Assembly (NCBI RefSeq): GCF_055900595.2
Contig: NZ_CM148325.1
DNA: 64,000 bases
Reading direction: 5' to 3' (one strand)
Part shown: piece after piece, positions 348 through 929 of the stretch
Position numbering within the stretch: position 1 is the first letter of the stretch
How the letters are laid out: each line of letters begins with the position of its first letter
Notes under the pieces: model-generated
The model's input: the letters and a program-made list of their open reading frames with translations, nothing else
Told to the model about the DNA's origin: nothing
Database searches by the model: none
Translations under genes and position numbers: made by a program

Positions 348-929
348 CCCCACCCGGGGTGAAATCATACACCTCGTGATTGATTCCAACGGGCTAAAAG
401 TCTTTGGGGAAGGCGAAAGGAAAGCCAAAAAGCACGGCAAAGAGGGGCGTCGCATCTGTCTGTTGATGGCAACACACATGAAATTGTCTGTGCAGACCTG
501 TCGCTGAACAACGTCACGGACTCAGAAGCCTTCCCGGGGCTTCTCCAACAGACTCACAGAAAAATCATGGCTGCAGCGGTAGACGGGGCTTACGCCCCCC
601 GACTCTGTCACGATGAACTGAGGCGTAAGAAAATCAGCGCGCTTACCCCTTCCCGAAAAGGTGCGGGTTACTAGCCCGGTGAATACGAAGACCGTAACCG
701 TGCAGTGGCTAATCAGCGGCTGACCGGAAGTAATGCCCGGTGTAAATGGACAACAGATTATAACCGTCGTTCGATAGCGGAAACAGCGATGTACCGGGTA
801 AAACAGTTGTTCGGAGGTTCACTGACGCTGCGTGACTACGATGGTCAGGTTGCAGAGGGTATGGTCATGGCGCTAGCGCTGAATAAAATCACGAAAGTAG
901 GTATGCCTGAGAGCGTGCGTATTGCCTGA
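348..929 (+). mobile_element. IS4/IS5-superfamily DDE transposase remnant, N-terminally truncated and frameshifted
   Basis: Open frame from ~348 (no start codon) reads ...IHLVIDSNGLKV...AAAVDGAYAP...; stops at TAG ~690, then continues in another frame (705..929) with YNRRSIAETAMYRVK, matching the Y-2-R-3-E-6-K transposase signature. Confidence 0.55.

Follow-up and report, generated by a model that had tools for sequence, protein, structure and literature searches.

An IS903-group insertion sequence relic at an internal seam of a decayed Escherichia coli pathogenicity island

The DNA analysed here (the window, 64,000 nucleotides) is Escherichia coli chromosome, and the transposase remnant near its left end lies inside a large, mosaic and decayed pathogenicity island (Table 1). 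In strain SCU-115, more than 75 kb of DNA to the left of the remnant carries iha, iucABCD-iutA, sitABCD and sodC, together with remnants of an integrating conjugative element and dozens of IS pseudogenes. Directly upstream of the window are genes for PerC and ProQ/FinO. The truncated ssb on the left flank encodes 98 aa, against 136 aa in a relative. The first ~37 codons of the neighboring small ORF (95–307, minus strand) match a hypothetical gene of an element in strain 23AR0303 (L008 594–4333), whose gene order, integrase-HTH-Icd-DUF4222-primase-ssb-PerC-capsid, is phage-satellite-like (PICI-type). Relatives of both genes occur in this element, and the left flank (1–307) is the remnant of such a phage-satellite-like module. 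Directly to the right of the remnant, the GC content drops from ~52% to ~30%.

The cytochrome b562-like gene in this AT-rich DNA encodes a divergent cytochrome b562 paralogue with a signal peptide; it scores 70.9 bits against NCBIfam NF011632, below the cut-off of 130. By eye, its motifs KNMQSL and EGHRKFR appear to keep the Met and His haem ligands of E. coli CybC. The three decayed genes that follow (a polysaccharide deacetylase, a family 4 glycosyltransferase and a phosphoethanolamine transferase) are frameshifted or truncated. A search of the window for a tRNA gene found none, and a literature search for a published name of the island at ynjA gave nothing usable. The core-genome part of the window has three Rfam matches above the gathering score, the ES036 (CssrF) sRNA (19662–19704, minus strand), the Phe leader (43577–43701, plus strand) and the STnc540 sRNA (47542–47700, plus strand), all ordinary features of the E. 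coli chromosome; near the remnant no Rfam family matched.

Table 1. Features of the remnant and of the adjoining island DNA (window coordinates)
Feature	Coordinates	Strand	Basis and remarks
5'-truncated ssb and small ORF (95–307)	1–307	-	Left flank, directly adjoining the remnant
Left breakpoint	343–350	.	IS homology ends; no inverted repeat; IS positions 1–404/405 absent
Whole remnant	349–983	+	IS positions 405/406–1057; alignments with four intact elements and blastn
Transposase segment A, frame 1	349–451	+	Codons ~125–159 of 322; codon-by-codon alignment to WP_072269234.1
16-bp internal deletion junction	451–452	+	IS positions 508–523 missing; alignments
Transposase segment B, frame 3	453–929	+	Codons 165–322 and the natural TGA (927–929)
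In-frame nonsense codon, TGG (Trp238) to TAG	672–674	+	Alignment; common to other strains; 'internal stop' of PGAP
Non-coding subterminal IS region	930–965	+	2-bp deletion at 949/950
Right terminal inverted repeat, GGCTTTGTTGAAAAAATC	966–983	-	17/18 against the IS903 inverted repeat GGCTTTGTTGAATAAATC
9 bp beside the IS end, CAACTGGTA	984–992	+	Expected place of a target-site duplication copy
Cytochrome b562-like gene	1227–1616	+	AT-rich (~30% GC) DNA right of the remnant
YebF-family gene and three decayed genes	2251–5566		RefSeq annotation of the matching genome
Tyrosine recombinase	5631–6818	-	Right end of the island, then the core junction

A first-pass annotation, made from the letters of the sequence, had read bases 348–929 as a decayed DDE transposase of the IS4/IS5 type; two protein profiles, megablast and the PGAP pseudogene call agree with it. 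The frame-corrected peptide does have a transposase match: Pfam DDE_Tnp_1 (PF01609) was found with E = 2.8e-19, far beyond chance, and 70.1 bits against a cut-off of 23, over profile positions 5–199 of 200. It also scored 148.6 bits against the NCBIfam equivalog NF033579, 'IS5 family transposase', passing the curated cut-off of 140 although the remnant covers profile positions 106–288 of 289 alone. IS903B-type elements were matched at E = 0 by megablast in 2,261 E. coli records. In strain SCU-115, PGAP describes the identical 581 nt (window 349–929) as 'IS5 family transposase; frameshifted; internal stop; incomplete; missing N-terminus'. This RefSeq pseudogene, HPE48_RS02800, is the same relic, an ordinary IS903-group pseudogene already carried in public annotation.

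The three catalytic codons are kept (Asp GAT 382–384, Asp GAC 582–584 and Glu GAA 780–782); in the alignment their counterparts in the annotated proteins of 322 aa are D136, D208 and E274. After subtraction of 15 extra N-terminal residues, these correspond to D121, D193 and E259 in the IS903 transposase of 307 aa; a literature search for the IS903 DDE residue numbers yielded no usable source. The DDE_Tnp_1 domain, the NF033579 score and the D/D/E codons together place the remnant in the IS5 family, IS903 group, by descent. Bases 349/350–983 (plus strand) are the 3' 635 bp of a 1057-bp insertion sequence of that group, and nothing contradicts this identification.

Coordinates within the remnant were set by alignment with four intact relatives and by blastn. 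Each relative is 1057 bp long and is bounded by GGCTTTGTTGAA... repeats. The remnant has lost the left inverted repeat and transposase codons 1–125 of the 322-codon annotated gene. About 197 of the 322 codons remain (61%), in keeping with the earlier description of a C-terminal two-thirds split over two frames (frame 1 at 349–451, frame 3 at 453–929). The start codon is lacking, as had also been described, and the translation of 349–929 contains none. The change from frame 1 to frame 3 is caused by the 16-bp deletion after base 451; this deletion and the TAG at 672–674 are details beyond the earlier description. IS homology extends beyond the stop codon to base 983. The remnant differs from the pKPC-224e transposase (WP_072269234.1) by 29 amino-acid changes in 192 comparable codons. 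In a published IS903-type element of 1057 bp (PMC9282650), tnp is 969 nt long and starts with TTG, and the target duplications are 9 bp; the intact copies analysed here agree with it on both sizes. Homology, coordinates, lesions and the kept inverted repeat are direct observations.

The inverted repeat at 966–983 is the sole match (17/18, one mismatch) in the 64-kb window, where 0.11 would be expected by chance. It lies ~20 bp to the right of the interval, 930–960, near which the first-pass annotation had proposed looking for terminal repeats. No second GGCTTTGTTGAATAAATC-like repeat with up to three mismatches was found in the 64 kb; since only the right repeat is present, the left IS end has been deleted. 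A direct partner of CAACTGGTA is absent from the window and from 20 kb upstream in strain SCU-115, as expected if a deletion took the left end together with its flank. The missing left part was also sought elsewhere, as the product of an inversion or translocation; none was found, and the remnant is the single IS903-like piece in the window and in 47 kb of SCU-115. A GC-rich near-palindrome, CCCCACCCGGGGTGAAA, lies at 348–364 (minus strand), exactly at the left breakpoint. Intact copies have most of it too, as native IS sequence (CACCCGGGGTG), and two flank bases extend it at the breakpoint. Deletion end-points often fall at hairpins; the coincidence seen here may be chance only. The left edge of the remnant is a rearrangement breakpoint. 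How and when the 5' part was lost is less firmly supported, since 343–350 shows neither a second IS end nor a repeat.

Ungapped identity of the remnant to the four intact elements was 88.0–89.7%. The named isoform IS903B (pCP61-IncN copy, WP_000654802.1) is collinear with the remnant over IS positions 405–1057. The two share the DDE_Tnp_1 transposase, the 18-bp terminal repeat (17/18), the stop position and the subterminal layout. Unlike IS903B, the remnant is without positions 1–404 and has the 16-bp and 2-bp deletions and the nonsense codon. By the ISfinder convention an isoform has at least 95% nucleotide identity to its reference element, and the remnant is only 86.4% (gapped, megablast) to 88.0% (ungapped) identical to IS903B. 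The elements of Klebsiella pneumoniae pKPC-224e (WP_072269234.1; 89.7% ungapped) and E. coli pSCU-106-2 (WP_012904651.1; 89.1% ungapped) are intact at 1057 bp with both inverted repeats. The closest relative found was a chromosomal copy in Klebsiella indica TOUT106, which aligns to IS positions 2–1057 with 91.0% ungapped identity. These last three are unnamed IS903-group elements, annotated 'IS5 family transposase', and they are 9–11% diverged from the remnant.

Wider searches gave the same picture. Gapped megablast identity was 86–87% in 2,214 E. coli records, and the best value among the at least 5,000 plasmid records matched was 87.6%. Across 5,426 genomes of E. coli, 72,556 plasmids and the 14 species-representative loci recovered, no relative had at least 95% identity. 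Those loci came from a scan of one genome per species with a conserved 28-mer, and all have at most 91% identity; the exact isoform-specific 26-mer (858–883) gave zero matches in one genome per species. The parent element was not found among the loci recovered with the two scans. The remnant belongs to the IS903 group yet is no close copy of any element sampled; a closer named isoform may exist. The relic itself is shared: HPE48_RS02800 and its counterparts, found in a further 48 complete genomes of E. coli, have 99.7–99.9% identity to the remnant, with the same lesions and the same flanks. There is no difference of substance between them and the remnant, apart from some strains with ISEc12 or other DNA after base 873.

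Nei-Gojobori estimates were made over 190 comparable codons. The dN/dS ratio was 0.20–0.31 between the remnant and intact copies, against 0.04–0.15 among the intact copies, and dN was 0.07 for the remnant, against 0.002–0.012 among the intact copies. The raised ratio indicates relaxed constraint on the remnant. Compared with the pKPC-224e copy, dS was 0.224 and dN was 0.071. If the ancestor had a dN/dS of ~0.07, this divergence would comprise ~0.16 accumulated under constraint and ~0.06 accumulated neutrally after inactivation, values that, we stress, are rough and rest on small counts. Part of the 9–13% divergence must pre-date inactivation. The raised dN/dS and the lack of any sampled relative with 95% identity (91% at best) show the relic to be old and not recent, with an age that is only roughly quantified. 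This bears out the earlier view of the tract as old mobile DNA, here a diverged IS903-group relic, and all the concrete statements that had been made about the transposase remnant hold.

Window bases 300–1000 have full-length matches of 99.6–99.9% identity in 21 complete E. coli genomes. Of 5,426 complete genomes of E. coli, 49 carry the 50-mer across the left junction (300–349), each in a single copy and always beside the remnant, so the truncation happened only once. SCU-115, ECCNB12-2 and 702/18 have the same sequence at the left junction, at the 16-bp deletion junction and in the TAG region. These genomes are complete and independently assembled, and the lesions are therefore no assembly artefact; their sharing among strains is seen directly. 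The truncation pre-dates the spread of the island among the 49 carrier strains.

Later events have altered the relic in some of these strains. In ECCNB12-2, a complete ISEc12 (IS21 family, istA/istB) is inserted after base 873, with 863–873 duplicated (L009 5075–7652). In strain 702/18 the break falls at this base too, and beyond it lie an IS3-family pseudogene, mobI, RhuM and a type I restriction-modification system (L025, 12575 onward). In L26, a 10,543-bp block of the SCU-115/window sequence is missing, ending at window position 1886 (1886/1887; L004 11735–22277; L007 9001). The missing block comprises an SgcJ/EcaC-family oxidoreductase, PhoX, ABC-transporter remnants, IS66 tnpA, ProQ, PerC, ssb, the IS903 relic and the cytochrome b562 gene, and its left end adjoins an IS3-type 'integrase core' remnant. 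A matching partial match suggests that 23CRST011 probably shares this deletion.

The first-pass annotation had also proposed that the remnant may be a former island boundary. For the present island this is not so. Genomes that are free of the island regain homology at window position ~7000–7002, beside ynjA, and the remnant is therefore not at the present boundary; the island extends for more than 75 kb to the left. The present island end lies ~6 kb to the right of the remnant, a position that is directly observed, and island DNA is found on both sides, so that the remnant does not mark an island/core junction. The junction between the integrase and ynjA occurs in 29 of 5,426 genomes, and an integrase ~85% identical is located elsewhere in strains H211 and H212. 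The remnant instead sits at an internal seam between the phage-satellite-like ssb/PerC module and an AT-rich module of different origin.

The seam could in principle record an older boundary, if the AT-rich, integrase-proximal module (984–7000) had once been a smaller island, with the remnant at its outer edge, and the large virulence island had accreted later. The fall in GC content on the right side of the remnant would fit such an origin, as would the satellite-like DNA of other origin on the left flank and the pairing of an intact right IS end with a left edge that is a breakpoint. In 702/18, moreover, the DNA right of the remnant is wholly different. The survey of genomes speaks against it. 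None of the 5,426 genomes has the right-hand module alone, and neither an intact IS nor an empty site at the seam was found among them. The 980–2000 flank is present at full length in 27 of these genomes, in each of which the match starts at base 980 and so takes in the final 4 bp of the IS, and among the matches listed every carrier of the flank also has the remnant. All 29 genomes with the integrase–ynjA junction have the island. The sole indel polymorphism seen, that of L26, ends at 1886 and not at the seam at 983. We therefore regard a former outer boundary as unlikely, albeit the best placed of the alternatives.

We very strongly favor, as the best explanation of the locus as a whole, an inert IS903-group (IS5 family) relic with the following history, of which the order of events and the truncation mechanism are inferred. 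A complete element of ~1057 bp would have inserted into AT-rich DNA upstream of the cytochrome b562-like gene, and its right end (inverted repeat 966–983) would still adjoin the original target. A later deletion or rearrangement would have taken the left ~405 bp, with the left inverted repeat and the transposase N-terminus, as well as the DNA that had lain beyond them, and would have joined the rest of the IS to the phage-satellite-like ssb/PerC module. The intact right IS end, the left breakpoint and the drop in GC content make this order the most economical: an IS enters AT-rich DNA, and a deletion then brings the satellite-like module alongside. The dead copy would then have drifted, acquiring the 16-bp deletion, the TGG-to-TAG change, the 2-bp deletion and an excess of amino-acid-changing substitutions. 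Today the relic would be passive sequence, a tolerated landing place for further IS insertions.

A more ambitious version of this history is a long shot: the relic would be all that has been sampled of an IS903-group lineage that is otherwise undescribed and may be extinct, and its right end would also be a preferred landing or recombination site that shapes the island mosaic. In favor of a preferred site, base 873 is the break point of two different downstream configurations.

Inertness of the relic follows from its structure. The N-terminal part of the IS903 transposase is the DNA-binding part, which binds the inverted repeats. The relic has a single inverted repeat, lacks this part and the start codon, and carries a frameshift and a stop, so that no transposase is made and no two-ended mobilisation can occur. 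On these features the copy is predicted to be neither autonomous nor mobilisable, having no start codon, an interrupted ORF and one inverted repeat only. Most likely, the remnant has no function.

We also considered whether the relic has been co-opted. The ORF at 705–929, whose 74 aa are the C-terminal end of the transposase, or a promoter that reads outward from the IS end might regulate the cytochrome b562-like gene, or the ORF might inhibit incoming IS903-type transposases. A promoter-like site does lie at 862–889 (plus strand), but a scan of bases 1–2000 found promoter-like and terminator-like sites to be no commoner than in shuffled sequence (4 promoter-like sites, against 4.6 ± 2.2 in shuffles), and its single 'terminator-like' hairpin is the near-palindrome at 348–364 (minus strand). 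The relic is kept at 99.7–99.9% identity in carrier genomes, which could suggest selection for it; this near-identity is explained by the recently shared ancestry of the island. The raised dN/dS points the other way, as do the loss of the relic from L26 in the 10.5-kb deletion and the IS insertions inside it in other strains. Co-option is accordingly very improbable, and domestication of the remnant was rejected on the last three grounds.

IS903-group transposases are produced from one uninterrupted ORF, and the intact copies examined fit a single uninterrupted transposase ORF. That the gene in the window is functional, with its frameshift and stop being sequencing errors or programmed recoding, is scarcely credible: all three DDE codons are still there, but the N-terminal 125 codons and the left inverted repeat are missing, the frame change is a 16-bp deletion relative to every relative with no slippery site, and identical lesions recur across independently assembled complete genomes. 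Sequencing artefact and programmed frameshifting were both rejected on the strength of the 16-bp deletion, the missing N-terminus and the identical lesions.

Taken alone, the inert IS903-group relic is of little importance: dozens of such IS relics lie in the virulence island (more than 75 kb, with iha, iuc/iutA and sitABCD) beside ynjA. It is mildly informative in two respects: it descends from an IS903-group lineage that was not sampled intact here, and it marks a rearrangement seam inside the island. From the remnant it is clear that a rearrangement brought together the ssb/PerC module and the AT-rich cytochrome b562 module, which are not natively adjacent. The 50-mer at 300–349, together with the 16-bp deletion junction, provides a unique and stable marker (49 of 5,426 genomes) for tracing the descent and rearrangement of this island in avian and human E. 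coli.
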